Part shown: positions 2,994 to 34,661 of the stretch, piece by piece | How the letters are laid out: each line of letters starts with the position of its first letter | How positions within the stretch are numbered: position 1 is the first letter of the stretch | Assembly: GCA_044892505.1 (NCBI GenBank) | Contig: CM097882.1 | Span: forward strand, 172,422,001 to 172,486,000 | DNA: 64,000 nucleotides | Source: Schmidtea nova | Lineage: Eukaryota | Direction: 5' to 3' | Translations under genes and position numbers: made by a program | Notes under the pieces: model-generated | Database searches by the model: none | What the model was told of the DNA's origin: nothing | Seen by the model: the letters and a program-made list of their open reading frames with translations, nothing else

Positions 2994-5900
2994 NNNNNNN
3001 NNNNNNNNNNNNNNNNNNNNNNNNNNNNNNNNNNNNNNNNNNNNNNNNNNNNNNNNNNNNNNNNNNNNNNNNNNNNNNNNNNNNNNNNNNNNNNNNNNNN
3101 NNNNNNNNNNNNNNNNNNNNNNNNNNNNNNNNNNNNNNNNNNNNNNNNNNNNNNNNNNNNNNNNNNNNNNNNNNNNNNNNNNNNNNNNNNNNNNNNNNNN
3201 NNNNNNNNNNNNNNNNNNNNNNNNNNNNNNNNNNNNNNNNNNNNNNNNNNNNNNNNNNNNNNNNNNNNNNNNNNNNNNNNNNNNNNNNNNNNNNNNNGAC
3301 TATAGATCAAAATTTTTTTTTTTATAAACAATAACACAATATTTCGGCACAGCCTTTATCAAGTGTGTATTTCTATCGTTATATTTACTTAATCCTAAAT
3401 AGTTTTTTAATGTTTTTTAATCAAACAGATTTGCCTATCCACATCCGTCCAACGTTCATAACCTCCGCACCGTTAAAATCACAACTCCGAAAGCCAACAA
3501 TTTCCAACATCTCCAAACATAAATGTCTTTGCCGTTCCACAACCCGATGCTTTTGCTTTTCCGAAAATATAGTATATAAACTTTCTTGTCAAAAATGTGA
3601 CGCTACTTACATAGGAGAAACACATAGAACTTTTCGCACCCGACTTAATGAACACACTACAAACAAAACCACTAATTATTACGAACACTGGGAGAAAGTA
3701 CATAAAACAACTCCATCTATAGAAGAAACAAAATGCCAGATTCTACAAGAGGGATTCAAAAATTCATTACAAAGATTAGCTTCCGAGACTTTTTTCATAA
3801 AAAAATACAAACTGTCCATCAACATTCAATTCGCACAAAAAAAATTAAAATAAATATTTTCATCCAATAAAATCATTATAAAATATTAGAAAAATAATTA
3901 AGGCTACTATTTAGGATTAAGTAAATATAACGATAGAAATACACACTTGATAAAGGCTGTGCCGAAATATTGTGTTATTGTTTATAAAAAAAAAATTTTG
4001 ATCTATAGTCATTATGAGAATTATTGATAATAATAATAAAAAAAGATCAAANNNNNNNNNNNNNNNNNNNNNNNNNNNNNNNNNNNNNNNNNNNNNNNNN
4101 NNNNNNNNNNNNNNNNNNNNNNNNNNNNNNNNNNNNNNNNNNNNNNNNNNNNNNNNNNNNNNNNNNNNNNNNNNNNNNNNNNNNNNNNNNNNNNNNNNNN
4201 NNNNNNNNNNNNNNNNNNNNNNNNNNNNNNNNNNNNNNNNNNNNNNNNNNNNNNNNNNNNNNNNNNNNNNNNNNNNCTTGGTAGCAGCATTAAGTATTAA
4301 ATTAATTAATAAATAAGTAACAAAATAAGCCTTTGCTGCAAAAATATAATTTTATTAAATGAGAAAATTATATTTTTGCAGCAAAGGCTTATTTTGTTNN
4401 NNNNNNNNNNNNNNNNNNNNNNNNNNNNNNNNNNNNNNNNNNNNNNNNNNNNNNNNNNNNNNNNNNNNNNNNNNNNNNNNNNNNNNNNNNNNNNNNNNNN
4501 NNNNNNNNNNNNNNNNNNNNNNNNNNNNNNNNNNNNNNNNNNNNNNNNNNNNNNNNNNNNNNNNNNNNNNNNNNNNNNNNNNNNNNNNNNNTTATTATCA
4601 TAATTATCTTTTTGTTTCATCTTTGATCTTTTTTTAATATTAGTATCAATAATCCTCATAATGGATGACTATAGATCAAATTTTCTTTAAATAAGTACAC
4701 AATTTTACGGCNNNNNNNNNNNNNNNNNNNNNNNNNNNNNNNNNNNNNNNNNNNNNNNNNNNNNNNNNNNNNNNNNNNNNNNNNNNNNNNNNNNNNNNNN
4801 NNNNNNNNNNNNNNNNNNNNNNNNNNNNNNNNNNNNNNNNNNNNNNNNNNNNNNNNNNNNNNNNNNNNNNNNNNNNNNNNNNNNNNNNNNNNNNNNNNNN
4901 NNNNNNNNNNNNNNNNNNNNNNNNNNNNNNNNNNNNNNATTATTATAATATTTTTAGGTAAAAAATCGATATTTAACCCTCGGAAGAGCTCTACGTCAGT
5001 ATGAAGAAATTCGTTATAAATCGTGGTATAAATCTGTCTCTAATTCTCTTTCCCCTATGCTTTCACAACCAATTTTAGCAAAAGAAGTCAAACCAAGTCG
5101 GGGATCTTTAATTAAAAAGTTGGAGCAGAAAACAGATAATTTTGAATTGTTTTCTCATGGTTAAAAGATTTTACAATTACTTTACTTCATTGCATATTTT
5201 GATGATATAGTATTCCCCAAATATGTTGTCAATTTTAATGATAAATTGTGGGCAATAATAGCTGAATCTAAGCTGATGGAGTTATTAGATTTACAGATTC
5301 CAGAGTTGTCAAGGATAGTTGGACTGCAAGTAAACCCAAATATTCTAGTTATAGTTTTTTGACATAATTTTTGAATTCTGATTTATATATAAATTTTTAC
5401 AACTTAATAAAGCTAATAGTGAAATATTTCTTTTGCATTTAAGGAACCACATTTTCAAAAAACAGTTTTGGCACTTGAAACAATTCTAGAACGTTATGAT
5501 AAAATTCGAAATTCGTTAAACAGTTTATCGGTAATATTTTTATTTTTAATCTAATAATTATTTTATTAATTGTAGATTATTATGTTAGAAGATTCTCTAG
5601 AAATATTATTAACGGTCCTTGACCGAGGAACATTTATGTTGAATTGGGATAGTCTGCCATTTGAAGAATATATTACTCTTTGCAATACGGTAGGATAATT
5701 ACTTTTTTTTAAAAGTTTTTTTATTTACATTCTAAAATTGTTTTTTTTTATTTCAAAGCAGATTCCCTCAAATTCATTAACCCGCTAACTCACCCCCTTC
5801 CCATCTAAAAGTTTTTTTAATTAACCTTCATTCTGTGAATTCGGGGTTGACTGATACCAGTCATTGTAATATGCGACTCAATAAGTTTACACCAAATAAA

Positions 5901-8900: not shown

Positions 8901-10630
8901 ACATTTAATACCCGGAAATCTAAACATATTCTTATATCTTACTTGTTTTTCTCTAAAAATACATACTAATAGACTATTCCATACTAAATCACAATATTTT
9001 TAATTTCTGCTTTTCCATATTTTTTGACAGTTCTTGAATTTTATGCGCTTCGTGTATAGATTGACGCCTAGGATTAATAGTATCTGGATTTCCATTTGTA
9101 GCTATTTTGTGTTTAATTAGAGTCGTATTTTCAACATTCAATTTGTGTTTCAAAAAAACTTTCGAATACTTATAAATTAAATTTCTATTGTGAGGTCGAT
9201 ATTTCCTTGTATATTACTTTTTTCCAAACTCATTATTTGAGGTACTTTTTTATGCGACTGTTAATTTAAGTCAGAACATTCATCATTTCTACTCCACCAA
9301 TTGTCACAAAAGACCCATTAACTAGTTCCATTTCCGATAGTCGTACATTCTTTTTTCATTGTTATTGTATCGACCATTTTTCACTATTGACGCGTAAGTA
9401 GGTAGATAAGTGGAGCCGGGAACAAAGACATTATGACTCATTGCGTGGGCGGGGAAAAAAGAACAAAGACACCCCCCTCCCCTCCCCCCCGGGGGGGGGA
9501 GGGGGGTAGAAATTTTTTTTGATGACTCATCGATGACTCATCGATGACTCATCATTTTTATGACTCATCGATGACTCATTTCAAATTTGAATTTTATGAC
9601 GTCATCGATGACTCATTTCAAATTCAAATTTTAAATTTGAATTTCCAAAGGTTAAATAAGGTCAAACCTTCAAACAAGGGTATTATTCGAAAGGTCTTGG
9701 AGAGGTCTATACAATGGTCATAACCTCGAAGGTTTATGGAGGGTCTTTAACCTTCAAAGGGTGCAAAACCTTCAACCTTTTTCAATCCTTATAATATATA
9801 TATCATTCGAAAGGTATTTAAGAGGTAGGTATGTTGGTCATACCTTCGAAGGTTTATGTAGGGTCTTTAACCTTCAAAGGGTGCAAAACCTTCAACTTTT
9901 TTCAAACCTTATAAAATATATATATCATTCGAAAGGTATTTGAGAGGTAGGTATGTTGGTCATACCCTTGAAGGTCTATGGTGGGTGCTCAACCTTCAAA
10001 GGGTCCAAAACCTTCAACCTTTTTCAATCCTTATAATATATATATCATTCGAAAGGTATTTGAGAGGTAGGTATGCTGGTCATACCCTCGAAGGTCTATG
10101 GTGGGTGCTCAACCTTCAAAGGGTCCAAAACCTTCAACCTTTTTCAATCCTTATAATATATATATCATTCGAAAGGTATTTGAGAGGTAGGTATGCTGGT
10201 CATACCCTCGAAGGTCTATGGTGGGTGCTCAACCTTCAAAGGGTGCAAAACCTTCAACCTTTTTCAAACCTTATAATATATATATCATTCGAAAGGTATT
10301 TGAGAAGTAGGTATGCTGGTCATACCCTCGAAGGTCTATGGTGGGTGCTCAACCTTCAAAGGGTCCAAAACATTTAACGTTTTTTAAAGCTTGTGTGTAA
10401 TATATCAAACAAAAGGTAACTGAGATGTGCACACAATGGTCATACCCTCGAAGGTTTATGGTGGGTGCTCAACCTTCAAAGGGTGCAAAACCTTCAAAAA
10501 ATTTTAAACATTACAAGTTATATATCAAACACAGGGTAATTGAGATGTGCACACAATGGTCATACCCTCGAAGGCCTATGGTGGGTGCTAAACCTTCAAG
10601 GGGTCAAAAACCTTCAAATCTTTTCAAACC

Positions 10631-10711
<81 letters not shown>

Positions 10712-13700
10712 AACAAAAGGTAATTGAGAGTTGAGTATGATGGTCAACCCTCGAAGGGTCCAAGGTTCAAAATTTTTAAAACTATGTAATATATGTATCA
10801 AACAAAAGGTAATTGATAAATGAGTTTAATGGACATACCATTGAAGGTGGGTGGTCGACCCTCGAAGGGTCCAAGGTTCAAAATTTATAAAACTATGTAA
10901 TATATGTATCAAACAAAAGGTAACACTTTGCAACACATGTGCAACATTAACAAAGACATTGCAATCCACATGCAACGTAAACAAAGACATTTCTTTGCCA
11001 AATTTCATAATAAAGACATTTCATTGAAAAATTTCATAACAAAGACACTTCAATGCCAAAAAACTAAACAAAGACATTTCATTGCAAAATTTCATAACAA
11101 AGACATTTCAATGCCAAATTTCATAACAAAGACACAACAATGCCAAATTTCATAACAAAGACATTTCAATGCCAAAAAACTAAACAAAGACATTTCATTG
11201 CAAAATTTCATAACAAAGACATTTCAATGCCAAAAAACTAAACAAAGACATTTCATTGCAAAATTTCATAACAAAGACATTTCAATGCCAAAAAACTAAA
11301 CAAAGACATTTCATTGAAAAATTTCATAACAAAGACATTTCATTGCCAAAAACTAAACAAAGACATTTCATTGCCAAATTTCATAACAAAGACATTTCAT
11401 TGCCAAATTTCATAACAAAGACATTTCAATGCCAAAAAAAAAAAAAACTAAACAAAGACATTTCATTAGCAAATTTCATAACAAAGACATTTCATTGCAA
11501 AATTTCATAACAAAGACAATTCATTGCCAAAAACTAAACAAAGACATTTCATTGCCAAATTTCATAACAAAGACATTTCATTGCAAAATTTCATAACAAA
11601 GACATTTCAATGCCAAATTTCATAACAAAGACATTTAAATGCCAAAAAACTAAACAAAGACATTTCATTGCAAAATTTCATAACAAAGACAATTCATTAC
11701 CAAAAAATTAAACAAAGACATTTCATTGCCAAATTTCATAACAAAGACATTTCATTGCCAAATTTCATAACAAAGACATTTCATTGCAAAACACCTAAAC
11801 AAAGACATATCAATACCAAAATAACTAAACAGAGACACGAACATTTACTAGCAGAACATTTACTATCAGAACATCTTTTGTGATGGTTTTTATCTGCCAA
11901 AGCTTATTACTCGAACATTAATTACAATTCAACTTCATTCAGCATCATTTGATAAAACAAAGACATATCATTGTCAAAACACCTTAACAAAGACATTACA
12001 GTACCCATGCATTGTAAGCAACATACTAACAAAGACATTACAGTACCCATGCAGTGTAAGCAACATGCTTACAAAGACATTGCAATACAGATGCAAGTTA
12101 ACAAAGACATTGCAAAACATATGCAAGTTAACAAAGACATTGCAATGCAGATACTAGTTAACAAATNNNNNNNNNNNNNNNNNNNNNNNNNNNNNNNNNN
12201 NNNNNNNNNNNNNNNNNNNNNNNNNNNNNNNNNNNNNNNNNNNNNNNNNNNNNNNNNNNNNNNNNNNNNNNNNNNNNNNNNNNNNNNNNNNNNNNNNNNN
12301 NNNNNNNNNNNNNNNNNNNNNNNNNNNNNNNNNNNNNNNNNNNNNNNNNNNNNNNNNNNNNNNNNNNNNNNNNNNNNNNNNNNNNNNNNNNNNNNNNNNN
12401 NNNNNNNNNNNNNNNNNNNNNNNNNNNNNNNNNNNNNNNNNNNNNNNNAAACAGAGACATTGTATATCCAAAACAATACATATGCAAGTTAACAAAGACA
12501 TTGCAATACATATGCAAGTTAACAAAGACATTGCAATACATATGCAAGTTAACAAAGACATTGCAATACATATGCAAGTTAACAAAGACATTGCAATACA
12601 TATGCAAGTTAACAAAGACATTGCAATACATATGCAAGTTAACAAAGACATTGCAATACATATGCAAGTTAACAAAGACATTGCAATACATATGCAAGTT
12701 AACAAAGACATTGCAATACATATGCAAGTTAACAAAGACATTGCAATGTGGATACAAGTTAACAAAGACATACATGCAAGTTAATAAAAAATATTCAAAA
12801 ATATTCAAAATTATTCAAGAGTTCAAAATTTTTTAAAACTATATAAATATCATGCGAAAGATATTTGAGATGTGTGTTTGTATATGTTTTCAAACCTTCA
12901 AGATGTCAAAATAAAATAATTAAACTACCACAACGTAATATATATTTATTTTCCTACCTATTTTGACGCTGCAATTCATGTGCAATACTAACAAAGACAT
13001 TGCAAAACAGATGCAAGTTAACAAAGACATTGCAGTTGCAAGCCAAGTTAACAAAGACAAGATGTCAAAAAAAGACTAATTATTATTAATCACAAAGTGC
13101 ATTATCTTAGCCAATGATAAAAATAAATTAAATGAAAATACATATATTTTTGTACGACATTATATGTATATCACATGATATTCATCAATATTAATACCAC
13201 AAGACTCACACTTATCAATATTTTTTAAACATTTTGAACAAATAATGACATGTCCACAAGGTAAATATAAAATGCCAACTCTATTTATATTACATATTGA
13301 ACATGTGAGAAATCTTTGTTTGATTTCTTTCAATTTCTTGGTTACATTTACCTCTAAAATATCCACATTCAGCATGAAAGTTCGAATAATAGTACGATAT
13401 TTTCCAAGTCGAAATTCCATACATGACCAGAAAATGGTATTCAAATTGAATTCAGTAGAATCGATATCATTAAGAATCATAAAAAAACTGGATAATTTCA
13501 TCATGGATTTATCATATCCGAATGATTCTGTTAAACCAATAATTAATTTATTATTGAAGGATTTGAATAATTTTGAAAGAATGTCGATATCGCATTTCTC
13601 AATCGATGTTAAAAGGTCATCAAGTATTAAAAATGATTGGATCCAATTGTCCAAAGTAATGAAATTATCTGTAACCTAGTTTAAAATAATTAATTTAAAT

Positions 13701-14286
13701 ATATATATATATATATATATATTTTTAAAACTAACTTTATTTGTTTCTTTATTTGTTACTTTATTCATTTTCATCAATCAATACTATTTACAAGTTGTAT
13801 TTATATTGCAAAAATCAACCAATTTAATAACCAACCAATGATTGAAAGTTTTGCTAAACTGTTACATTGAAATGATGATAAGTGACATTGAAAATTAGGT
13901 AACAATATATTTATTATTAGAAATATGTTCAAGTAATGAGCTTTTGCACATAAAAACCATCACAGAATAGGTTCTGCTACTAGGGTTCTGCTCGCAATGT
14001 TCTGCTACTAAATGTTCTGTCACTATGACAAATACATGAAAAATTATCATACTATTGAGATAATCATACAAATTATTCTTAAATTATAGTACAAATATAT
14101 CAAAAATATTTGAAATATACATTACATACTTGAAATATTATCACAAAGTATCATTACATACATGAAATATCTTCATGCTATTGGACAAAATATATACAAA
14201 ATATCATCATACTGCAATTACATCGAAAATCACCAAAATTATACACAAAATATGAAAAGTACATAGAAATTCGTCACATACAAAAA

Positions 14287-14345
<59 letters not shown>

Positions 14346-15299
14346 CAAAAATACATACAAAATACATAGAAATCTATCACATATGTACAAAATATCATCA
14401 TACTATAGTGAATAAATATACATACAAAATATCAGAAATACAAACATACATAAAATTTCATCTTACTATAGTTTGATAACATAGAAATACTTGAAATATC
14501 CACAAAATACAGAAACTAACCAAGATATATATATATATATAGTCATCATACATACAAAATATCACATATAAGAAATATCATTACAGATTATCACATGCAT
14601 GTAATATTATTATTATTATAGTGCAAATTCCATAGAAAATAACAAAGGGACATGAAATATCATCACAAAATTATAGGAAATTTCCACACATTAGAAATAC
14701 ATACAATATTAATCAAAAAAGAATATTATCATACCAGTGCAAAATTATTACATTGCACAAAAGGTTATCATATATATGAAATATTATTATACTTTTATGT
14801 AAAGTACAAAGAAAAATACAAACATATACACAAAATATACACAAAATATATCATCATACTATAATTTAACAGTAATAAATACTCACAAAATATCAAAGAT
14901 TTACAAACAAAATACACAAAAGATTATAATATTATTGTTTGATAACATAAAAATACATTGAAATACATAGAAAATTATTAAAATACATACATGAAATAAT
15001 ATTACACAAAAGGTTATAACATACATGAAATATCTACATACAAAATATCAAAAGTACATAGAGATAAATCCTATACGCAAAAGATATCATTACATATATG
15101 AAATATTATGACAAAATATCTTTACATAGATGAAATATCATCATACTTTAATGAAAATACAGACAAAATATTATCATGCTATATTCCAAATACACTTAAT
15201 ATTAAAAAGAAATATCATACATACATACACAAAGGATATCATTCACATGAAAAGTTGTCATGTTATAGTCAAAAGCATGAATTATTATCATACTAGTGT

Positions 15300-15369
<70 letters not shown>

Positions 15370-18300
15370 CAAATAATGTATCATACATACAAAGGATATC
15401 ATTACAAAGTATCATTACATACATTAAATATCATCACACTATAGTACAATTAAATAGATAATCATCAAAAAATATACAGAAATTAAATCAAATTCACAAC
15501 AATATTCATTAGAAATATCTACATACTTGTGCAATTACATAATAAATATCAAAATTATATGAAATATCATCACATATGACATATTATCATACATACACAA
15601 AGGATATAATATCACATACTTAGAAAATTATTATCACATACAAAATATCAAAAGTTCATTACACATGCAAAATATAATTACATATATCATTATACTATAA
15701 TTTAACAGTAATAAATGTTTAACTAATGAGCTTTTGCACATAAAAACCATCACAAAAGATGTTCTGCTACTAGGGTTCTGTTCGCAATGTTTTGCTAGCA
15801 ATGTTCTGCTACTGAATAAATTTGATGAAAATGTAACAATGTATTATGAATGAAAATAAATATTTCAAACATTACAGTAATTTCTACTTTAAAATGAGGT
15901 TGAATGCATGAAATGTCATCATACTATAGTGCAAATACATGAAATACTCTTTAAATACATGACTTTAGATGCATCAAATATTATCTTACTATAGTTTGAT
16001 AACATAGAAAAAATATATAGAAATCATCAAAATTATACAAAATATTAAAAATAGATTATATTAAATATCATCACAAAGTACATAGAAAATCATAAAAATA
16101 CACAGAAATTCATCAAATCCACAACAATAATCATTAAAGAAATATCTACATACTAGTGTAATTACATAACAAAATATCTGAAAATATATGTTATATCATC
16201 ACAAATATGAAATATTATCATATACAAAGGATATAATCACATACAAAAGTTCATTACACGTACAAAATATACTATCATATATCAACATACCTTAATGTAA
16301 CAGTAATAATTGTTCAAGTAATGAGCTGTTGCACATAAAAACCATCACAAAAGATGTTCTGATACTAGGGTTCTGCTACTAAATGTTCTGCTAGTTATGT
16401 TATGCTACAGTATAAAATTAATGAAAGTTATATGAATGGAAATAAATGTTTCAAACATTACAGTAAATTCTACTTTAAAATGAGGTTGAATGCATGAAAT
16501 ATCGTCATACTATAGTGCAAATACATTAAAATACTCACAAAATGATATTAGATACATCAAATATTATCTTACTGTAGTTTGATAACATATTAAAAATAGA
16601 TCATATAAAATTTCATCACAAAATACATAGATATTCATGTACAAATTATCACAAAAAAAAGAAAAAAATACAAACATACACAAAATATTATCACAAAATA
16701 TCACAAATACATTAGAAATACATATCAAATATATATATGAAATGTCATCACAAAGTATCATTAAATATATGAAATATCATAATTCTATAGCGTAATTACA
16801 AGAAAATATCCACAAATTCTCACAAATACTATGAAATTTATCAAAAATACATTGAAATTCATCAAAAATACATTGAAATTCATCAAACAAGAAATATTCA
16901 CATAATAATTGTCATTAAAAGAGTATCAGTAATTGTAATATACTTTCACAATTTGCCTGTTACATTGATCGAAGCTCATATGCTAATGATTGTTATTTTA
17001 GTACATGTGTGAATAATAAGCTTTTGCACATAAAAACCATCACAAAAGATGTTCTGTTACTAAAGGTTCTGTTCGAAATGTTCGGCTAGTGGATAAATTT
17101 AATGAAAATTATACGAGTGACAATAATTTGTTAGAGTAAATTCTACATTAAAATGAGGAAAACCAATAGAGAAAATATTAATTGGTGAAAATATTAGAAC
17201 AAATGATGCTGAATGAATTGCAATAAATGTTCGAGTAATAAGCTTTAGCAGATAAAAACCATCACAGAATAGGTTCTGATACTAAATGTTCTGTTCGCAA
17301 TGTTCTGCTAGCATGAAATTAATATAATAATAATAAAATGATAGTCTGTGACAAAATAAAATGTTGAAATAGTTATTGGAAATATATAGTCTGTAACAAA
17401 AATGTGAAATAATTATTGGAAATATATAGTCTGTGACAAAATAATTATTGGAAATACGCACGAAAATAAATTAAAATAATATCAAACTGTACATCATAGT
17501 TTTAATTTCTTGTAAAAAACAAAGCAAGTTATCAAAATTCATGTTCTAAATAAAATTTTACAATTTAAAATACCACAACGTAAAATATTTATAAAGTACC
17601 ACAACGTAATAAAAGCTGGTATATATCTATTACAATTTTATAAGTAATTCATTTTTAACTATGAACTGTCAACAATATAATGATAATAAAGTTAATGAAC
17701 CTATTTCAATAAATGGAGTTTCGATGCCTGAAAGTCCTAAACTTTCAAGAAAACTTTCAAGTAAATTTATATTTATTTTTTATAAAGTTATTATTATAAT
17801 ATTTATTAGAAAAATATAAAGAAATCAAGAGTCCAATTGAAGAATTGCAGAACATAATAAATTCTTACTTGGACTCCAAAGAACGATTAATTATCAAGCT
17901 TCGAAAAAAGAACATTCAGATAATCAAGTTGAAAATAGAAAATGAAAGAAATTGAATGAAATCCAAGAATCGAAAGATGATCAATAAAATATTTTTAATA
18001 GTTTTTTAGTTATTTTTTCTTCTATAACATTTGAGTTAAAATTTTATTAGTATAGTTGTTGTTGTATTAAATAATAAACATGTTAAGTAAATAATCTTTT
18101 TCAATGTATAGTAAAGCTATCGAGTTTTTGTTATATCATCCTATTTAAAATTTTATTAGTATAGTTGTTATATTAAATAATAAACATGTAAAGTAAATAA
18201 CCTTTTTGAATGTATAGATACAATATTTATAGTAAAGCTATTGATGACATATATGAATATTTAAAGATATGAAGAGGTAAAATAATAAATGTCATACTTC

Positions 18301-20722
18301 AGACCATATTTTTAATCTTGCGATGAAATTATTAAAAAGCTTGAATATGTTATGATGGATATGTTTCTTAGGATATCTTGCTTGATACTTTGTTTTTAAA
18401 CATCTGACAAAATCCCCTAAATTATTATTTATATCTCAAATGAATTACTTATAAAATTGTAATAGATATATACCAGCTTTTATTACGTTGTGGTACTTTA
18501 TAAATATTTTACGTTGTGGTATTTTAAATTGTAAAATTTTATTTAGAACATGAATTTTGATAACTTGCTTTGTTTTTTACAAGAAATTAAAACTATGATG
18601 TACAGTTTGATATTATTTTAATTTATTTTCGTGCGTATTTCCAATAATTATTTTGTCACAGACTATATATTTCCAATAATTATTTCACATTTTTGTTACA
18701 GACTATATATTTCCAATAACTATTTCAACATTTTATTTTGTCACAGACTATCATTTTATTATTATTATATTAATTTCATGCTAGCAGAACATTGCGAACA
18801 GAACATTTAGTATCAGAACCTATTCTGTGATGGTTTTTATCTGCTAAAGCTTATTACTCGAACATTTATTGCAATTCATTCAGCATCATTTGTTCTAATA
18901 TTTTCACCAATTAATATTTTCTCTATTGGTTTTCCTCATTTTAATGTAGAATTTACTCTAACAAATTATTGTCACTCGTATAATTTTCATTAAATTTATC
19001 CACTAGCCGAACATTTCGAACAGAACCTTTAGTAACAGAACATCTTTTGTGATGGTTTTTATGTGCAAAAGCTTATTATTCACACATGTACTAAAATAAC
19101 AATCATTAGCATATGAGCTTCGATCAATGTAACAGGCAAATTGTGAAAGTATATTACAATTACTGATACTCTTTTAATGACAATTATTATGTGAATATTT
19201 CTTGTTTGATGAATTTCAATGTATTTTTGATGAATTTCAATGTATTTTTGATAAATTTCATAGTATTTGTGAGAATTTGTGGATATTTTCTTGTAATTAC
19301 GCTATAGAATTATGATATTTCATATATTTAATGATACTTTGTGATGACATTTCATATATATATTTGATATGTATTTCTAATGTATTTGTGATATTTTGTG
19401 ATAATATTTTGTGTATGTTTGTATTTTTTTCTTTTTTTTGTGATAATTTGTACATGAATATCTATGTATTTTGTGATGAAATTTTATATGATCTATTTTT
19501 AATATGTTATCAAACTACAGTAAGATAATATTTGATGTATCTAATATCATTTTGTGAGTATTTTAATGTATTTGCACTATAGTATGACGATATTTCATGC
19601 ATTCAACCTCATTTTAAAGTAGAATTTACTGTAATGTTTGAAACATTTATTTCCATTCATATAACTTTCATTAATTTTATACTGTAGCATAACATAACTA
19701 GCAGAACATTTAGTAGCAGAACCCTAGTATCAGAACATCTTTTGTGATGGTTTTTATGTGCAACAGCTCATTACTTGAACAATTATTACTGTTACATTAA
19801 GGTATGTTGATATATGATAGTATATTTTGTACGTGTAATGAACTTTTGTATGTGATTATATCCTTTGTATATGATAATATTTCATATTTGTGATGATATA
19901 ACATATATTTTCAGATATTTTGTTATGTAATTACACTAGTATGTAGATATTTCTTTAATGATTATTGTTGTGGATTTGATGAATTTCTGTGTATTTTTAT
20001 GATTTTCTATGTACTTTGTGATGATATTTAATATAATCTATTTTTAATATTTTGTATAATTTTGATGATTTCTATATATTTTTTCTATGTTATCAAACTA
20101 TAGTAAGATAATATTTGATGCATCTAAAGTCATGTATTTAAAGAGTATTTCATGTATTTGCACTATAGTATGATGACATTTCATGCATTCAACCTCATTT
20201 TAAAGTAGAAATTACTGTAATGTTTGAAATATTTATTTTCATTCATAATACATTGTTACATTTTCATCAAATTTATTCAGTAGCAGAACATTGCTAGCAA
20301 AACATTGCGAACAGAACCCTAGTAGCAGAACATCTTTTGTGATGGTTTTTATGTGCAAAAGCTCATTAGTTAAACATTTATTACTGTTAAATTATAGTAT
20401 AATGATATATGTAATTATATTTTGCATGTGTAATGAACTTTTGATATTTTGTATGTGATAATAATTTTCTAAGTATGTGATATTATATCCTTTGTGTATG
20501 TATGATAATATGTCATATGTGATGATATTTCATATAATTTTGATATTTATTATGTAATTGCACAAGTATGTAGATATTTCTAATGAATATTGTTGTGAAT
20601 TTGATTTAATTTCTGTATATTTTTTGATGATTATCTATTTAATTGTACTATAGTGTGATGATATTTAATGTATGTAATGATACTTTGTAATGATATCCTT
20701 TGTATGTATGATACATTATTTG

Positions 20723-20812
<90 letters not shown>

Positions 20813-21766
20813 ACACTAGTATGATAATAATTCATGCTTTTGACTATAACATGACAACTTTTCATGTGAATGATATCCTTTGTGTATGTATGTATGATAT
20901 TTCTTTTTAATATTAAGTGTATTTGGAATATAGCATGATAATATTTTGTCTGTATTTTCATTAAAGTATGATGATATTTCATCTATGTAAAGATATTTTG
21001 TCATAATATTTCATATATGTAATGATATCTTTTGCGTATAGGATTTATCTCTATGTACTTTTGATATTTTGTATGTAGATATTTCATGTATGTTATAACC
21101 TTTTGTGTAATATTATTTCATGTATGTATTTTAATAATTTTCTATGTATTTCAATGTATTTTTATGTTATCAAACAATAATATTATAATCTTTTGTGTAT
21201 TTTGTTTGTAAATCTTTGATATTTTGTGAGTATTTATTACTGTTAAATTATAGTATGATGATATATTTTGTGTATATTTTGTGTATATGTTTGTATTTTT
21301 CTTTGTACTTTACATAAAAGTATAATAATATTTCATATATATGATAACCTTTTGTGCAATGTAATAATTTTGCACTGGTATGATAATATTCTTTTTTGAT
21401 TAATATTGTATGTATTTCTAATGTGTGGAAATTTCCTATAATTTTGTGATGATATTTCATGTCCCTTTGTTATTTTCTATGGAATTTGCACTATAATAAT
21501 AATAATATTACATGCATGTGATAATCTGTAATGATATTTCTTATATGTGATATTTTGTATGTATGATGACTATATATATATATATATCTTGGTTAGTTTC
21601 TGTATTTTGTGGATATTTCAAGTATTTCTATGTTATCAAACTATAGTAAGATGAAATTTTATGTATGTTTGTATTTCTGATATTTTGTATGTATATTTAT
21701 TCACTATAGTATGATGATATTTTGTACATATGTGATAGATTTCTATGTATTTTGTATGTATTTTTG

Positions 21767-21807
<41 letters not shown>

Positions 21808-24800
21808 TTTTTGTATGTGACGAATTTCTATGTACTTTTCATATTTTGTGTATAATTTTGGTGATTTTCGATGTAATTGCAGTATGATGATATTTTGTAT
21901 ATATTTTGTCCAATAGCATGAAGATATTTCATGTATGTAATGATACTTTGTGATAATATTTCAAGTATGTAATGTATATTTCAAATATTTTTGATATATT
22001 TGTACTATAATTTAAGAATAATTTGTATGATTATCTCAATAGTATGATAATTTTTCATGTATTTGTCATAGTGACAGAACATTTAGTAGCAGAACATTGC
22101 GAGCAGAACCCTAGTAGCAGAACCTATTCTGTGATGGTTTTTATGTGCAAAAGCTCATTACTTGAACATATTTCTAATAATAAATATATTGTTACCTAAT
22201 TTTCAATGTCACTTATCATCATTTCAATGTAACAGTTTAGCAAAACTTTCAATCATTGGTTGGTTATTAAATTGGTTGATTTTTGCAATATAAATACAAC
22301 TTGTAAATAGTATTGATTGATGAAAATGAATAAAGTAACAAATAAAGAAACAAATAAAGTTAGTTTTAAAAATATATATATATATATATATATATTTAAA
22401 TTAATTATTTTAAACTAGGTTACAGATAATTTCATTACTTTGGACAATTGGATATAATCATTTTTAATACTTGATGACCTTTTAACATCGATTGAGAAAT
22501 GCGATATCGACATTCTTTCAAAATTATTCAAATCCTTCAATAATAAATTAATTATTGGTTTAACAGAATCATTCGGATATGATAAATCCATGATGAAATT
22601 ATCCAGTTTTTTTATGATTCTTAATGATATCGATTCTACTGAATTCAATTTGAATACCATTTTCTGGTCATGTATGGAATTTCGACTTGGAAAATATCGT
22701 ACTATTATTCGAACTTTCATGCTGAATGTGGATATTTTAGAGGTAAATGTAACCAAGAAATTGGAAGAAATCAAACAAAGATTTCTCACATGTTCAATAT
22801 GTAATATAAATAGAGTTGGCATTTTATATTTACCTTGTGGACATGTCATTATTTGTTCAAAATGTTTAAAAAATATTGATAAGTGTGAGTCTTGTGGTAT
22901 TAATATTGATGAATATCATGTGATATACATATAATGTCGTACAAAAATATATGTATTTTCATTTAATTTATTTTTATCATTGGCTAAGATAATGCACTTT
23001 GTGATTAATAATAATTAGTCTTTTTTTGACATCTTGTCTTTGTTAACTTGGCTTGCAACTGCAATGTCTTTGTTAACTTGCATCTGTTTTGCAATGTCTT
23101 TGTTAGTATTGCACATGAATTGCAGCGTCAAAATAGGTAGGAAAATAAATATATATTACGTTGTGGTAGTTTAATTATTTTATTTTGACATCTTGAAGGT
23201 TTGAAAACATATACAAACACACATCTCAAATATCTTTCGCATGATATTTATATAGTTTTAAAAATTTTTGAACTCTTGAATAATTTTGAATATTTTTGAA
23301 TATTTTTTATTAACTTGCATGTATGTCTTTGTTAACTTGTATCCACATTGCAATGTCTTTGTTAACTTGCATATGTATTGCAATGTCTTTGTTAACTTGC
23401 ATATGTATTGCAATGTCTTTGTTAACATGCATATGTATTGCAATGTCTTTGTTAACTTGCATATGTATTGCAATGTCTTTGTTAACTTGCATATGTATTG
23501 CAATGTCTTTGTTAACTTGCATATGTATTGTTTTGGATATACAATGTCTCTGTTTNNNNNNNNNNNNNNNNNNNNNNNNNNNNNNNNNNNNNNNNNNNNN
23601 NNNNNNNNNNNNNNNNNNNNNNNNNNNNNNNNNNNNNNNNNNNNNNNNNNNNNNNNNNNNNNNNNNNNNNNNNNNNNNNNNNNNNNNNNNNNNNNNNNNN
23701 NNNNNNNNNNNNNNNNNNNNNNNNNNNNNNNNNNNNNNNNNNNNNNNNNNNNNNNNNNNNNNNNNNNNNNNNNNNNNNNNNNNNNNNNNNNNNNNNNNNN
23801 NNNNNNNNNNNNNNNNNNNNNNNNNNNNNNNNNNNNNNNNNNNNNNNNNNNNNNNNNNNNNNNNNNNNNNNNNNNNNNNNNNNNNNNNNNNNNNNNNNNN
23901 NNNNNNNNNNNNNNNNNNNNNNNNNNNNNNNNNNNNNNNNNNNNNNNNNNNNNNNNNNNNNNNNNNNNNNNNNNNNNNATTTGTTAACTTGCATATGTAT
24001 TGCAATGTCTTTGTTAACTTGCATATGTATTGCAATGTCTTTGTTAACTTGCATCTGTATTGCAATGTCTTTGTAAGCATGTTGCTTACACTGCATGGGT
24101 ACTGTAATGTCTTTGTTAGTATGTTGCTTACAATGCATGGGTACTGTAATGTCTTTGTTAAGGTGTTTTGACAATGATATGTCTTTGTTTTATCAAATGA
24201 TGCTGAATGAAGTTGAATTGTAATTAATGTTCGAGTAATAAGCTTTGGCAGATAAAAACCATCACAAAAGATGTTCTGATAGTAAATGTTCTGCTAGTAA
24301 ATGTTCGTGTCTCTGTTTAGTTATTTTGGTATTGATATGTCTTTGTTTAGGTGTTTTGCAATGAAATGTCTTTGTTATGAAATTTGGCAATGAAATGTCT
24401 TTGTTATGAAATTTGGCAATGAAATGTCTTTGTTTAGTTTTTTGGTAATGAATTGTCTTTGTTATGAAATTTTGCAATGAAATGTCTTTGTTTAGTTTTT
24501 TGGCATTGAAATGTCTTTGTTATGAAATTTGGCATTGAAATGTCTTTGTTATGAAATTTTGCAATGAAATGTCTTTGTTATGAAATTTGGCAATGAAATG
24601 TCTTTGTTTAGTTTTTGGCAATGAATTGTCTTTGTTATGAAATTTTGCAATGAAATGTCTTTGTTATGAAATTTTGCAATGAAATGTCTTTGTTTAGTTT
24701 TTTGGCATTGAAATGTCTTTGTTATGAAATTTTGCAATGAAATGTCTTTGTTTAGTTTTTTGGCATTGAAATGTCTTTGTTATGAAATTTGGCATTGTTG

Positions 24801-25223
24801 TGTCTTTGTTATGAAATTTGGCATTGAAATGTCTTTGTTATGAAATTTTGCAATGAAATGTCTTTGTTTAGTTTTTTGGCATTGAAGTGTCTTTGTTATG
24901 AAATTTTTCAATGAAATGTCTTTATTATGAAATTTGGCAAAGAAATGTCTTTGTTTACGTTGCATGTGGATTGCAATGTCTTTGTTAATGTTGCACATGT
25001 GTTGCAAAGTGTTACCTTTTGTTTGATACATATATTACATAGTTTTATAAATTTTGAACCTTGGACCCTTCGAGGGTCGACCACCCACCTTCAATGGTAT
25101 GTCCATTAAACTCATTTATCAATTACCTTTTGTTTGATACATATATTACATAGTTTTAAAAATTTTGAACCTTGGACCCTTCGAGGGTTGACCATCATAC
25201 TCAACTCTCAATTACCTTTTGTT

Positions 25224-25290
<67 letters not shown>

Positions 25291-25753
25291 GGTTTGAAAA
25301 GATTTGAAGGTTTTTGACCCCTTGAAGGTTTAGCACCCACCATAGACCTTCGAGGGTATGACCATTGTGTGCACATCTCAATTACCCTTTGTTTGATATA
25401 TAACTTGTAATGTTTAAAATTTTTTGAAGGTTTTGCACCCTTTGAAGGTTGAGCACCCACCATAAACCTTCGAGGGTATGACCATTGTGTGCACATCTCA
25501 GTTACCTTTTGTTTGATATATTACACACAAGCTTTAAAAAACGTTGAATGTTTTGGACCCTTTGAAGGTTGAGCACCCACCATTGACCTTCGAGGGTATG
25601 ACCAGCATACCTACTTCTCAAATACCTTTCGAATGATATATATATTATAAGGTTTGAAAAAGGTTGAAGGTTTTGCACCCTTTGAAGGTTGAGCACCCGC
25701 CATAGACCTTCGAGGGTATGACCAGCATACCTACCTCTCAAATACCTTTCGAA

Positions 25754-25803
<50 letters not shown>

Positions 25804-28800
25804 ATATTATAAGGTTTGAAAAAGGTTGAAGGTTTTGCACCCTTTGAAGGTTGAGCACCCACCATAGACCTTCGAGGGTATGACTAGCATACCTACCTCT
25901 CAAATACCTTTCGAATGATATATATATATTATAAGGATTGAAAAAGGTTGAAGGTTTTGGACCCTTTGAAGGTTGAGCACCCACCATAGACCTTCAAGGG
26001 TATGACCAACATACCTACCTCTCAAATACCTTTCGAATGATATATATATATATATTATAAGGTTTGAAAAAAGTTGAAGGTTTTGCACCCTTTGAAGGTT
26101 AAAGACCCTCCATAAACCTTCGAAGGTATGACCAACATACCTACCTCTTAAATACCTTTCGAATGATATATATATTATAAGGATTGAAAAAGGTTGAAGG
26201 TTTTGCACCCTTTGAAGGTTAAAGACCCTCCATAAACCTTCGAGGTTATGACCATTGTATAGACCTCTCCAAGACCTTTCGAATGATACCCTTGTTTGAA
26301 GGTTTGACCTAATTTAACCTTTGGAAATTCAAATTTAATATTTGAATTTGAAATGAGTCATCGATGACGTCATAAAATTCAAATTTGAAATGAGTCATCG
26401 ATGAGTCATAAAAATGATGAGTCATCGATGAGTCATCGATGAGTCGTAAAATGATGAGTCATCGATGAGTCATCGATGAGTCATAAAATGATGAGTCATC
26501 GATGAGTCATCAAAAAATTTTCTTCCCCCTCCCCCCTCCCCCCGGGGGGAGGGGGAGGGGGGTGTCTTTGTTCTTTTTTTCCCCGCCCACGCAATGAGTC
26601 ATAATGTCTTTGTTCCCGGCTCCACACATCTACCTACTCGCGTAAGAGGTATTTCCAATGGCTGAAACTTGTTGAATCTTTGATTTATCTTCATCCATTT
26701 TCTGTAAAATTATTTTAATATTTTTATTTGCCATTGGACCTTTCTGTACTGATTCTCCATCATTTCTTAAATCTTCTTTCAAAAATTTTTACTTTCAGTA
26801 AATCTTCCGTCATTTCATATCTTTTTATATCACGTTTTGCTTCTTCATTATCAAGACAGTGCTTTAGGAAGAATGTTGTCAAATTTGACATTGTTAGCTT
26901 GTGCTTCAGAATTTTCTGAAAACCTTTCTCAATTTTACTGATCTAAGTTTCTGCATCATCTGCTCTTTTTTAACTCTTTCTATTAACTTCCAATTTCTGT
27001 TTGTTTTCTTGTCAAACTTTGGATCGATTTTTAACCCACTTCCCGATATCCAATCGATCTGATAGACTCGTGGTGGCCCACAAATTATTCCATTGAAAAA
27101 TTGAAAAATTTGAAAAATTTTGAAAAGTTTTGAAACAATGTGATTTTTTAATTTACTGTTGCCAAGAAACTACCAAACAATGAAACAACAAAAAAATTAA
27201 CCGAAAACATGAGAAAAAGAAAGAGTTACATTAAAAACTTGTTTTTATGGGTTCCTTTTTTTCGATAATTTAGCAAATTTTCCAAATCCTTAGCTAAATC
27301 CTGGTTTTCTTCGAATGCTAATCTAAGCCTTTTCGCATAATCTTCTTCATCTGGAATCTTATTATATTTGTTGTGGACCTTTCTTTGACTATTGTCTAGC
27401 TGAATAATTAAAAAAATATGCTTTAATCTTCTCAATAAACTGTTCCTAATCGTCTCAATTGAATAGATTTTCGCTTGTAAGAGAATATGTAATAATACCT
27501 GAGTTGAAAGCGTTGTCATGAATTATTGTTACGTAATATACTAATTAATTTATTAATTTACTTATTCCTTAATTACATGAAGCAATTATTTTTGTTTTTT
27601 AATTAATTAACGATTTTTTGTGTGATTTAAATGGTAATCTTATTAAAATAATTTAATTTTTATCATTTCCATGTACTCCTTTCTATACCAATTTGTGCTA
27701 TGTAATAAATGACAAAATACAGTAAAGTATTATCTTGTAAGAAATTTATTTCAAGACTCGCAAGTCAACTTTCCACTGAGTTTATTTTGTTCAGGCTGGA
27801 CCTGGTTAGCCTAGGCATCACACACAGGCTAAAATATCTGATAAAATACGCTCACAAATGCACAAAGCAAGACAAAACAAAGTTAAATAACAAAATACGC
27901 CTTTGCTCCAAAATCTTTTTATTAAGTGAAAATTTTCTATTATAAAATAATCCTTATTAATCCATTAAGTTAAAAATATTAAAATGGAAAAAAAATTTAT
28001 TGAGATAATGTCTAAAATAGTATAATTTATCTATAATGTGATGAGTTGCCACGATACTGAATTGTCTGTTATGAATAATCATGCGATGAACTGTCATGGA
28101 ATCAATTAAATACAAACAAGATAATACCGTATAACGATGAATACAGCCTCTTATAATATAAAATGAAATTATACTAACAAAGAATAAAAACTTTATTATG
28201 TGGCAGACAAAAATGATAGAAAAAAATTGTAAACCACAAAACAGTATTATATAATAGAAACTGCATACAAACTGTTAATGGGTGTAAATTTAATCAATCA
28301 ATAAAAACAAATAATAAATTTTAAACACAAAAAAGTTGTTATCTTTATTTTAATTATTTTTATCGATTTTTAAAATGAAACCAATTTTAAAAGCAAAATC
28401 TTTGAAAAAAATATTTTTCAAGAGAGCATATTGTAAGATTTATTTTTTATTTAATAATTAATTAAAATTTTTATAGCAATTCCGATATTTCTGATGGATT
28501 AACGTTAAATTTTCGGGTAAATAATCAGTAAAATTTGTAAACATTATTTATTAATATATAATTAAATCAAAATTTTCATAGTATCATTTAATGAAAGACA
28601 ATTAAGTTCTGCAGTGCTTGATTTACAAAGAAAAACTAGTAAAACGTAGATTTTATTGACTAAAATTAAAAAAAATTATTGTAATAGAATTTCAGAGGCT
28701 GACAAAGCCAAAATTGCCAATGCCACGGAAAATGGGGAGGGTTACCTACAATTTGGAATACTGTTAAGAATCTCAAAAAACACAATTAAATCAATAATAT

Positions 28801-31800: not shown

Positions 31801-34661
31801 NNNNNNNNNNNNNNNNNNNNNNNNNNNCAAATTCCATTAATTTATATGCATTTGAAATTACTTTTATTTAATAAGTCAATTCATAAGTTTTATCGGTTTC
31901 TAACATTAGTACAAGATTCTTTATTCGTTGGAAACGAGGAACTTGTAAACCGTGTCCTCCAGTCAGAGTTGAAAATAGTGATACTCCATTTTTATTTTCC
32001 CATCTACTCGACTTGGAAAAGTGTAAAGAAATCAGAGAACCAGAAACAGTTTTTCATCAGAAAATAAGTTATTTAAACAAAAATGTTATCGAATTTCTCA
32101 AGAAACTAAGTCGATTTACAGTTCTTTGGTTACAGGATAAGGTGATAGATTAAAAGTTTTTGACATAATTGATTAAAAATAAACTTAATTTAAGTGATGA
32201 AAAATTTTAAAGTGAAAAATAAGTTTACTAAAAATGTATAAATCTTTAAAATTTTGAAGAGATAAGCTTTAGGCCTAAAATTAATTTTTGAGATTAATAA
32301 TAATTAATAATAATAATAATAATAATATTATCAATAATTCTCATAATGACTATAGATCAAATTTTTTTTTTATAAACAATAACACAATATTTCGGCACAG
32401 CCTTTATCAAGTGTGTATTTAAAGGTGTGTATATAAAGTGTGTATATAAAGGCTGTGCCGAAATATTGTGTTATTGTTTATAAAAAAAAATTTGATCTAT
32501 AGTCATTATGAGAATTATTGATAATAATAATAAAAAAAGATCAAANNNNNNNNNNNNNNNNNNNNNNNNNNNNNNNNNNNNNNNNNNNNNNNNNNNNNNN
32601 NNNNNNNNNNNNNNNNNNNNNNNNNNNNNNNNNNNNNNNNNNNNNNNNNNNNNNNNNNNNNNNNNNNNNNNNNNNNNNNNNNNNNNNNNNNNNNNNTAAA
32701 TAAAAATGGCAATTTATTCATATAAATAAAAGAACACAATTTTTTTAAATATATTAATGCAATATATTTCAACAGCTTAGCTGTCATCATCAGGCTTTCC
32801 ACAATCTCAATTAAATAAAAATTGATCTTATTTATACGCTTAATAGTGATTACATAATTACACGTGCACAATCCAATAAAACTTTTATTTACTCTACTAA
32901 AATTAATTAAACACTCAAAATGCATGTAGATATTGCATTTTGTATGTTTATTTTAGGATTAAATAATTTTATCATCAAAGCCTCGCAATTCACACGTTCA
33001 TAATCATTGTTAAACACTAGAAAGTATTTTGAAATTAGAAATATCAATGCTCTTCTTGGACGTCTTATTATGCTCAATAATGTTACTCTTTTCGCTCTTT
33101 CTGGCATGTTCTTGAACTCGTGTAAGTCTTGCAAAGTTCGGGACATGTTCAGTAATAAATCTGTGACGCCATTTGGTATGTGTTCTGATCTCGTATATCG
33201 TTTTACTTGTAATGGGTGTAATGCCACATACATTAGAGAGACTGCCCGTCATCTTTGTACACGAGTTCAAGAAGAAGCCAGAAAGAGCGGAAAGAGTAAC
33301 TTTATTGAGCATACTAAGACTTGCAAGAAGAGCATTGATATTTCTAATTTCAAAATACTTTCTAGTGTTTAACAATGATTATGAACGTGTGAATTGTGAG
33401 GTTTTGATGATAAAATCATTTAATCCTAAAATAAACATACAAAATGCAATATCTACATGCATTTTGAGTGTTTAATTAATTTTACTAGGGTAAATAAAAG
33501 TTTTATTGGATTGTGCACATGTAATTATGTAATCACTATTAAGTGTATAAATAAGATCAATTTTTATTTAATTGAGATTGTGAAAAGCCTGATGATGACA
33601 GCTAAGCTTTTGAAAGATATTGCATTAATATATTTTAAAAAAGGTGTTCTTTTATTAATATTAATATTATTATTATTAATAATATTAATAATAATAATAA
33701 TGTTGTGTTAGTACATACTGAGAAAAACACAAATGAAACGAATAATTTAATAAAATTAAATAAAGACTAACGAGAGAAATTAGAAATAAATAATAAAGGG
33801 CATATAATACCTAAATATTATTAATCAGGAAAAATATATCAGTAAAACAAAAATTAAATTAAAAGTAAAAGTAAATCGATGAAAATAAGAAAATAAAAAC
33901 GAATTTAGGAAAATAATAAGAATTTAGAAATTAAATTAATTTAATGAAGAAAGTAATAAAACAATAACAAGAATAAAATAAATACTACGAGAAATAATAA
34001 ATAAAATAAAAATCGGGTTATCTGGTCAATAAGAGGCCAGGTCGATTTTAATTGTCTGCTTGAGCGCTGAATTTACTATAAAAAAAAACGCTCAAGTCAG
34101 TTTTAAAAGTGTCATTTTTACGTTGAAGGAGGTCATTTTTCACAACCAAATACACATTCTCAACATTACTAGACAAAAATTCTATAAGGCAGAAATTCAT
34201 AAATTGCCACTTAGAATGACTTGGTAAATATTTGCAATTATTGAGTAGTAAATGAGAGCAATTAAACCGACGAAAAACTAATTATAAAATGGGTAGAGAT
34301 ACACTTGAGACATGAGAATACCGTGGGAAGTGAGGGGAACAGCCGAAACATATATTTCCGTAATTATTGGAAAAAATCGATCAAGTGCCGTTTGGAGTGA
34401 ATATATACCCACTCGAATATAAATTATCAACCTAAATGAATTTTCCACAAATAACTCTGAGTAATTAAACATCACCGACGACAGAGCATAATGGAATGGA
34501 ATGACACGACCATTAATAATAAAATGGGCAATAACGAGAGGGTGATCGATACCTAAATAGGAAATAATGAAACTCACAGACGACAAATTCATATACAAAT
34601 ATTGAGGGACCCACAACACCCATTCAGTTACCCCAGGGACATACATTTTATTTCATTGATA

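Follow-up and report, generated by a model that had tools for sequence, protein, structure and literature searches.

The window analysed here is a 64,000-nt stretch of Schmidtea nova contig CM097882.1 (positions 172,422,001 to 172,486,000, forward strand), and coordinates are counted from its first base. A DHC_N1 exon at 2526-2801 and DHC_N2 exons at 40229-61035, all on the plus strand, bracket three sites that carry inverted pairs of arms from a Penelope-like element (PLE). Because these exons lie on either side, the placement of all three sites within one gene, a dynein heavy chain, is supported. A dynein match was also sought in the two exon-like frames adjoining the 32 kb and 36 kb sites, and none was found. 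An initial sequence-only reading had described the same inverted ribozyme pair three times in one gene. The pairs were confirmed (for the second and third sites, 32328-32545 and 36589-36779) and the common gene was supported, but not the presence of six intact cores: the full core is found in five of the six arms, and the plus-strand arm at 32446 begins inside the core, without U3-U4-G5. The features of the three sites are as follows.

3298-3403, minus strand: inverted short arm of insertion 1, a pLTR end that extends 41 nt upstream of U3 and meets N at its 3′ end
3330-3372, minus strand (3372 to 3330): mirror copy of the predicted U3-A8 minimal hammerhead, with the predicted cut between 3338 and 3337
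3404-3413, no strand: junction filler of insertion 1, a near-copy of neighbouring T-rich sequence that falls in the gap between blast pieces
3414-3853, plus strand: 5′-truncated ORF remnant with a C-terminal GIY-YIG endonuclease (PF01541, E = 1.8e-05), 97% to natural unit L032; stop at 3853
3854-3936, plus strand: upstream part of the pLTR, missing from short palindromes; likely to act as a promoter
3935-3940, plus strand: principal edge at which junctions of the family fall, 10-12 nt ahead of U3 and likely marking where the RNA begins
3937-3979, plus strand: predicted U3-A8 minimal type I hammerhead, with the predicted cut after U3971; a second edge lies at 3972-3973 in other copies
3980-4051, plus strand: 3′ part of the pLTR, with the ORF start codon at 4014 and the short end site at about 4028-4036; the 45-nt long tail begins here and enters N
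32328-32420, minus strand: short-tail arm of palindrome 2; its hammerhead is complete (U3 = 32410) and it adjoins an AAT tract
32421-32445, no strand: junction filler of palindrome 2, local sequence copied again
32446-32545, plus strand: long-tail arm of palindrome 2 with the truncated core
36589-36696, minus strand: long-tail arm of palindrome 3; it has the hammerhead core, U3 being at 36692, and a 4-bp stem I
36697-36705, no strand: junction filler of palindrome 3
36706-36779, plus strand: second arm of palindrome 3; its hammerhead is complete (U3 = 36718) and the arm enters N

Insertion 1 is a 5′-truncated copy reaching 537 nt upstream of U3, plus an inverted 41-nt arm, which corresponds to positions −41 to +62 relative to U3 and matches L032 at 97% (blastn).

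Several other elements lie in the window. A second inverted pair at 32740-33642, with 385-nt arms (95%), belongs to another PLE-like family and encloses GIY-YIG-like frames, for which no Pfam GIY-YIG match was obtained; within this pair, a C3-G8 core motif with a 6-bp stem II but no clear stem I occurs at 32793 (minus) and 33589 (plus). A long-tail arm of an older subfamily of the present element, with a degenerate core, is found at 4595-4711 (minus) and is interrupted by N. The short palindrome at 4277-4398 belongs to a different family, with unequal arms and no hammerhead core, and the end of its longer arm also occurs beside locus L007. Within the dynein gene, about 9500-26450 is occupied by a giant inverted repeat with arms of about 8 kb (98-100%). 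It contains tandem repeats, and each arm has a RING-finger frame (13160-13675, minus; 22458-22934, plus); it is either a large mobile element or an assembly feature. At 50528-53548 there is a non-LTR-type RT frame (PF00078, E = 6e-25), and the frame after it resembles, by eye, a mariner transposase.

Inspection of the window sequence located the hammerhead core on the plus strand at 3941-3975, with the letters given in the sequence-only reading. U3 is at 3947, A8 at 3952, G12 at 3964, AUAU at 3967-3970 and U17 at 3971, and this numbering agrees with the cut that had been predicted after 3971. A3954 is unpaired, stem II consists of 3 bp (3955-3957 with 3961-3963), and stem I has 4 bp (3943-3946 with 3972-3975), followed by a bulged C and 4 bp more (3938-3941 with 3976-3979). 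The hammerhead structure (4+4 bp stem I, 3-bp stem II) was the minimum-energy fold of the motif. Minimal hammerheads of metazoan PLEs are recognised by a Watson-Crick 3-8 pair with a GAAA box (here U3947-A3952 and G3964-A3967), an unpaired nucleotide between 9 and 10.1 (A3954), a G10.1-C11.1 pair (G3955-C3963), palindromic 15.2-16.2 (U3968/A3969) and placement in a PLE pLTR; all of these were found, the ribozyme lying between the ORF stop and the next ATG in 2767-bp tandem units. Judged by its letters, the motif is a U3-A8 minimal type I hammerhead with a palindromic helix III in the pLTR of a Penelope-like element, and both the ribozyme class and the Penelope setting that had been proposed held up.

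The fold stability of the plus-strand motif showed no excess over shuffled sequences (z = −0.87), and an Rfam search of the window returned no hammerhead match. The Rfam miRNA matches were below the cut-off and were set aside, as they reflect the palindromes. Cofolding of two strands gave a stem-swapped duplex rather than a double hammerhead, so that folding gives the dimer no support; the helix III duplex alone amounted to −2.4 kcal/mol. Small PLE hammerheads reportedly cleave as dimers, a finding attributed to Lunse et al. in 2017. Dimer cleavage of such ribozymes is covered in a review (PMC6765202).

The 29-nt core is present in the 1.25-Gb genome as 38,867 exact copies (19,403 and 19,464 on the two strands). 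Since the reversed pattern, which served as the specificity control, had no occurrence, the core is not a product of chance. The 4-bp helix I and helix II were invariant in two subfamilies and three other organisms; U17C was the sole variant, and the only core variant to reach at least 5% in the three other organisms among the matches listed. The lower extension of stem I is absent from the older subfamily. Covariation in stems I and II had been suggested as a check on the ribozyme; because the stems are invariant in the genomic copies, none was seen.

By tandem spacing, the parent unit is 2767 bp long, and its one ORF encodes 865 aa (P0001) with an RT domain (PF00078, E = 1.3e-07). The GIY-YIG domain (PF01541) was found on the remnant in the window but not on whole P0001, and homologues have both RT and GIY-YIG. 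Motif comparison with published features, aimed at placement among the Penelope/Poseidon, Neptune, Nematis and Hydra clades, showed that the homologues of P0001 have a Cys linker before GIY-YIG, which is reduced in P0001, and DKT replacing DKG. The element has the features of EN+ PLEs, namely a single ORF with RT and C-terminal GIY-YIG, and pLTR tandems with an inverted 5′ arm and a one-sided tail. Tails end at +89 and +134 from U3, that is, at two fixed 3′ ends 45 nt apart. The short copies L191 and L202 have 3′ ends about 40-50 nt beyond the long tail into the ORF, possibly reflecting a rarer third start site. The flanks of copies elsewhere in the genome are mostly (AAT)n or (AT)n tracts; the window flanks are N.

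The 38,867 core copies fall to 12,330 when 13 nt upstream of U3 are included and to 9,764 with 33 nt, and 983 pLTRs run on into the ORF. Short head-to-head pairs made up 48 of the first 100 core copies listed (counted by eye in the first 3 Mb of C1, not a random sample). A restrictive pattern detected about 3,300 short-palindrome loci, extrapolated to about 9,000. Secondary amplification of short palindromes in tandem arrays was noted at C1:3.07-3.15 Mb and C2:31.39-31.42 Mb.

To characterise the short palindromes, we collected 44 distinct examples (from loci L001-L042 and L092-L117 and from the window), part of them picked from a list that favours arms reaching the 5′ edge; like the other samples of loci in this analysis, they were taken in the order of listing, came mostly from contig C1 and are not random draws. 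Exactly one long and one short tail were present in 42 of the 44, and at least 46 of 50 palindromes joined at the cut site (described below) followed the same rule. The long-tail arm exceeded the other in 14 cases and fell short of it in 13, and in 15 the two were equal. Fifteen of the 44 had loop-free perfect centres, and 31 distinct junction strings were counted; an identical junction was found in two subfamilies (L042 at 7340). In the junctions of L251, L250, L027 and L041, two to four short units were re-copied with growing length, as if the RT had slipped back at the template end.

A rare variant carried by 67 of about 38,900 arms was informative about the template. Of 30 independent loci, with one tandem array counted once, 13 had it in both arms and 17 in one arm only; these loci include short and long copies alike, and the arms of some pairs are 2-4 kb apart. 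Among the long inverted pairs fetched, 10 of 20 had arms ending no more than 30 nt from the same position, and 10 of 20 were unequal. Mixed junctions, in which a cut-site arm meets a 5′-edge arm, numbered 148, against the roughly 1,500 that a rough estimate gives for independent templates. A search for second-generation junctions returned about two dozen loci; 2 of them fit and the majority were local duplications, although this search would miss daughters whose junctions had collapsed through microhomology. The sequence-only reading had considered a non-autonomous ribozyme-palindrome family possible. The short palindromes do lack coding capacity and depend in trans on the protein of the element, and that part of the idea stands; copying as a unit is not supported, given the 31 junctions in 44 copies and the shared variants. 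A fixed internal sequence common to dispersed copies, as in MITE-like families, was lacking by the same junction count and the few second-generation junctions. The short palindromes are probably not copied as a unit as a family of their own, and the mirror-image stumps are likely to be rebuilt at each insertion.

When each palindrome was folded as one transcript, a single hairpin of 76-86 bp was obtained (−101 to −113 kcal/mol). The two opposed arms were therefore ruled out as partners in a ribozyme dimer, as on one transcript they zip into one long hairpin. The same hairpin on a host transcript would leave the ribozyme buried.

Junctions of the palindromes cluster at two edges. At the first, 39 of the 44 short palindromes have a longer arm that stops 7-12 nt ahead of U3, and none extends past 12; loose contig ends lie at the same place in three other organisms of one study, from runs whose kind is unrecorded and one of which may be the source sample of the present genome. 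We considered a stall of the RT at this position and rejected it: of 30 pLTRs that continue into the ORF, 6 lack the core, and 23 of the 24 core-bearing ones read past the edge, indicating that it is an RNA end and that the sequence does not itself force a stall. We also discarded splicing or trans-splicing at the AG that precedes stem I, as no common foreign or upstream sequence was seen in the 44 junctions or in the pattern-listed loci, and an abort at fixed length, as L097 and L106, with longer A/T tracts, still stop at the same base (two cases only). On the simplest reading of these sequences, the first edge likely marks the transcription start. A plain mRNA-start model also predicts full-length units that begin here, although 0 of 24 did so. 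Such RNAs would thus likely come mostly from the 3′ pLTRs of truncated copies, or lose the downstream start sites.

The second edge lies at the predicted cut. At 221 loci both arms ended upstream of +2 and no more than about 10 nt from it, compared with 66 for an interval of equal width inside the core. In the first 50 loci, arm ends were distributed as +2, 35; +1, 27; −1, 9; −2, 11; −3, 2; −4, 1; and −5, 0, plus 15 at AATATT microhomology. The modal end is +2 rather than +1, and the ends at −1 and −2 are read, by assumption, as added A's. The distribution departs from uniform arm ends with a chi-square p of about 1e-8 under a simple null that ignores trimming biases, and ends drop about tenfold across the scissile bond, within 2-3 nt. 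Joins at the cut site were blunt in 22 of 50 and had one added base in 11 of 50 (33 of 50 together), and 10 of 50 used the AATATT palindrome; among the 50 core-control matches listed, 21 joins showed GC microhomology and 2 were short and blunt (by eye).

The second edge was also observed in the older subfamily, in which 12-17 of 38 arm ends at 19 loci fell at +1, compared with about 6 expected (by eye; C17 makes 5 of the +1 ends ambiguous). At 4 of these 19 loci, one common filler re-copies the sequence after +1, but flanks and tail variants differ. The interval just downstream of the cut held 15 non-array loci against 9 in the cut-site interval (first 43 Mb; 10 of the 15 fetched); its total of 531 is inflated by one tandem array that gave 35 of the first 50. 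Junction density downstream is thus as high as at the cut, which indicates a step with trimming behind it and not a lone peak. The coincidence of this step with the scissile bond suggests that a few percent of the templates had been cut, and we regard the second edge as a likely fossil of in vivo hammerhead cleavage.

Taken together, the results lead us to favour, with reasonable though not high confidence, three head-to-head insertions of the ribozyme end of one abundant PLE, each built afresh by copying one RNA twice. The element protein, whose Anolis relative is a predicted dimer, would nick an (AAT)n or (AT)n target on both strands. The two 3′ ends would then prime on one and the same RNA, the first at its long-tail site and the second at its short-tail site, and both cDNAs would extend to the RNA 5′ end, where they would be joined bluntly, by 1-2 nt of microhomology or with filler. 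An RNA starting at the pLTR start just before stem I would give a two-core palindrome of about 200-250 bp, as in most copies and at sites 2 and 3; an RNA that the hammerhead had cut after U17, probably through pairing of two transcripts into a dimer, would give the shorter coreless form (a few percent); and read-through RNA of tandem units would give long arms, as at site 1. The short templates would come mostly, and probably, from pLTRs at the 3′ ends of truncated copies, moved in trans. We infer two target-primed cDNAs on one RNA because of the tail rule, the absence of arm bias, the scarcity of mixed junctions and published biochemistry. Fresh construction is supported by the diversity of junction strings and by the same junction in two subfamilies, and the use of one template per insertion by the rare variant in both arms at 13 of 30 loci, the matched ends of 10 of 20 long pairs and, again, the few mixed junctions.

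The second edge could have arisen in the absence of cleavage, by RT pausing at the folded ribozyme or by loss of palindrome centres after insertion, a reading that we regard as unlikely but that retains real weight. In its favour are the proneness of long palindromes to deletion, the equal density of junctions just downstream of the cut and the use of the AATATT palindrome in 10 of 50 junctions. Such processes fit poorly, however, with a drop placed 2-3 nt from the scissile bond, with blunt or +A ends lacking microhomology, and with recurrence of the edge in a subfamily whose downstream sequence is different. The next stable stem, moreover, is another 8 nt away. Ribozyme cleavage remains our preferred explanation of this edge.

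How one RNA yields two arms is a separate matter, for which the main competitor is fold-back: a single cDNA turns on itself and copies back to the short-tail site, so that the palindrome is an opened hairpin and the edges are still RNA ends. Self-priming of this kind has already been proposed for Penelope palindromes (PMC3846280), and it accounts for shared variants, equal arm ends and the lack of mixed junctions with no need for two primers; a loop plus microhomology is indeed seen at some junctions (L100, L040). We nevertheless consider fold-back improbable in view of the loop-free centres of 15 of 44 palindromes, the unbiased longer arm (14 against 13) and the 22 of 50 cut-site joins that are blunt without microhomology. 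Still less probable, in our judgement, is a modified form of the earlier idea, a true non-autonomous family in which short palindromes have an internal promoter from which they are transcribed, and so give rise to further palindromes. Short forms do exceed the 983 ORF-bearing pLTRs several-fold, no full-length unit begins at the 5′ edge, and the internal promoter known in D. virilis Penelope (PMC2377424) offers a precedent. Daughters of the commonest junction could, moreover, collapse to the same string by a 6-nt microhomology and hence be invisible. Against such breeding stand the diversity of junctions, the rare variant in short and long copies alike, the small number of fitting second-generation junctions (2 of about two dozen loci) and the four same-filler loci with different flanks and tail variants. 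We therefore retain the copying of one RNA from two primed ends.

If that model is correct, the stumps would read out the RNA template: they would map its start, show U17 cleavage by a U3-A8 ribozyme in the germ line (a few percent), and trace the inverted ends of Penelope to a dimeric enzyme that copies one RNA twice from two start sites, the short products being moved in trans from orphan pLTR promoters. We would put the chance that this whole reading holds at about even. The ribozyme variant and the inverted layout have already been published, and the junction statistics are what is added here. In vivo cutting by weak animal PLE hammerheads becomes testable from genome sequence, as does the origin of inverted pLTR ends, listed as unexplained by Craig et al. 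2021 (PMC8557442). The thousands of perfect hairpins of 75-90 bp, some of them intronic as in the dynein gene, may also be a source of dsRNA.

We searched the literature, mostly open-access main texts, and found no paper with junction edges at the cut site or a two-cDNA model; the supplements of PMC4209133 and PMC11167929 may hold the present motif or comparable end maps. The closest ribozymes are those of Cervera and De la Pena 2014 (PMC4209133), who reported about 1,300 matches with the U3-A8 core, including Schistosoma mansoni Cercyon PLEs, with an unpaired base before stem II, a palindromic helix III and opposite-strand hammerhead pairs 100-700 bp apart. Cleavage in vitro was weak and confined to dimers, and the main text of that paper gives no in vivo evidence. 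Cercyon and the present family share the U3-A8 pair, the unpaired nucleotide before G10.1-C11.1, palindromic 15.2-16.2, the 4-bp helix I, the pLTR location, opposed pairs at 100-700 bp and a predominance of truncated copies. They differ in helix II (3 bp here, 7-8 bp in Schistosoma) and in uniformity, as the present motif forms one near-invariant family of about 39,000 copies whereas those of Schistosoma are heterogeneous; the junction edge at the cut site is described here and not in the main text of PMC4209133.

The canonical EN+ PLE insertion has an inverted pLTR, a tail on one side only and a microsatellite target (PMC3846280, PMC8557442). Elements of the Pen2a_Av type resemble the present one in their tandem units, inverted 5′-truncated arm, tail at one end, microsatellite targets and C-terminal GIY-YIG. 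Unlike the EN+ PLEs as described in the main text of these papers, the present family has about half of its arms in minimal two-arm palindromes, a 45-nt tail and junctions clustered at two fixed edges. Non-LTR (animal) retrozymes are likewise short, non-coding, pLTR-related and dependent on a PLE protein, with a type I hammerhead (bioRxiv 10.64898/2026.07.22.740005; PMC7229834). In retrozymes, however, units that each contain a hammerhead are repeated in tandem, head to tail, and give circular RNA (bioRxiv 10.64898/2026.07.22.740005), whereas the arms here are head-to-head, near-identical to the parent pLTR and apparently rebuilt at each site.

An internal promoter in D. virilis Penelope (PMC2377424) and the biochemistry of Poseidon PAc of Anolis (Frangieh et al. 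2024, PMC11167929) bear on the RNA and its copying. In PAc, RT starts at two internal sites that match the tail ends, both strands are nicked and extended at ATT, and the protein is a predicted dimer. Ribozyme cleavage is assisted by the protein, insertion does not need cleavage, and in the Anolis RNA-seq data of that report zero reads ended at the cut. Inverted insertions were left unexplained in its main text. PAc and the present element both have two RT starts just inside the ORF, downstream of the hammerhead, but PAc showed no strand preference between the start sites, whereas the genomic copies analysed here follow a near-strict rule of one long and one short tail.
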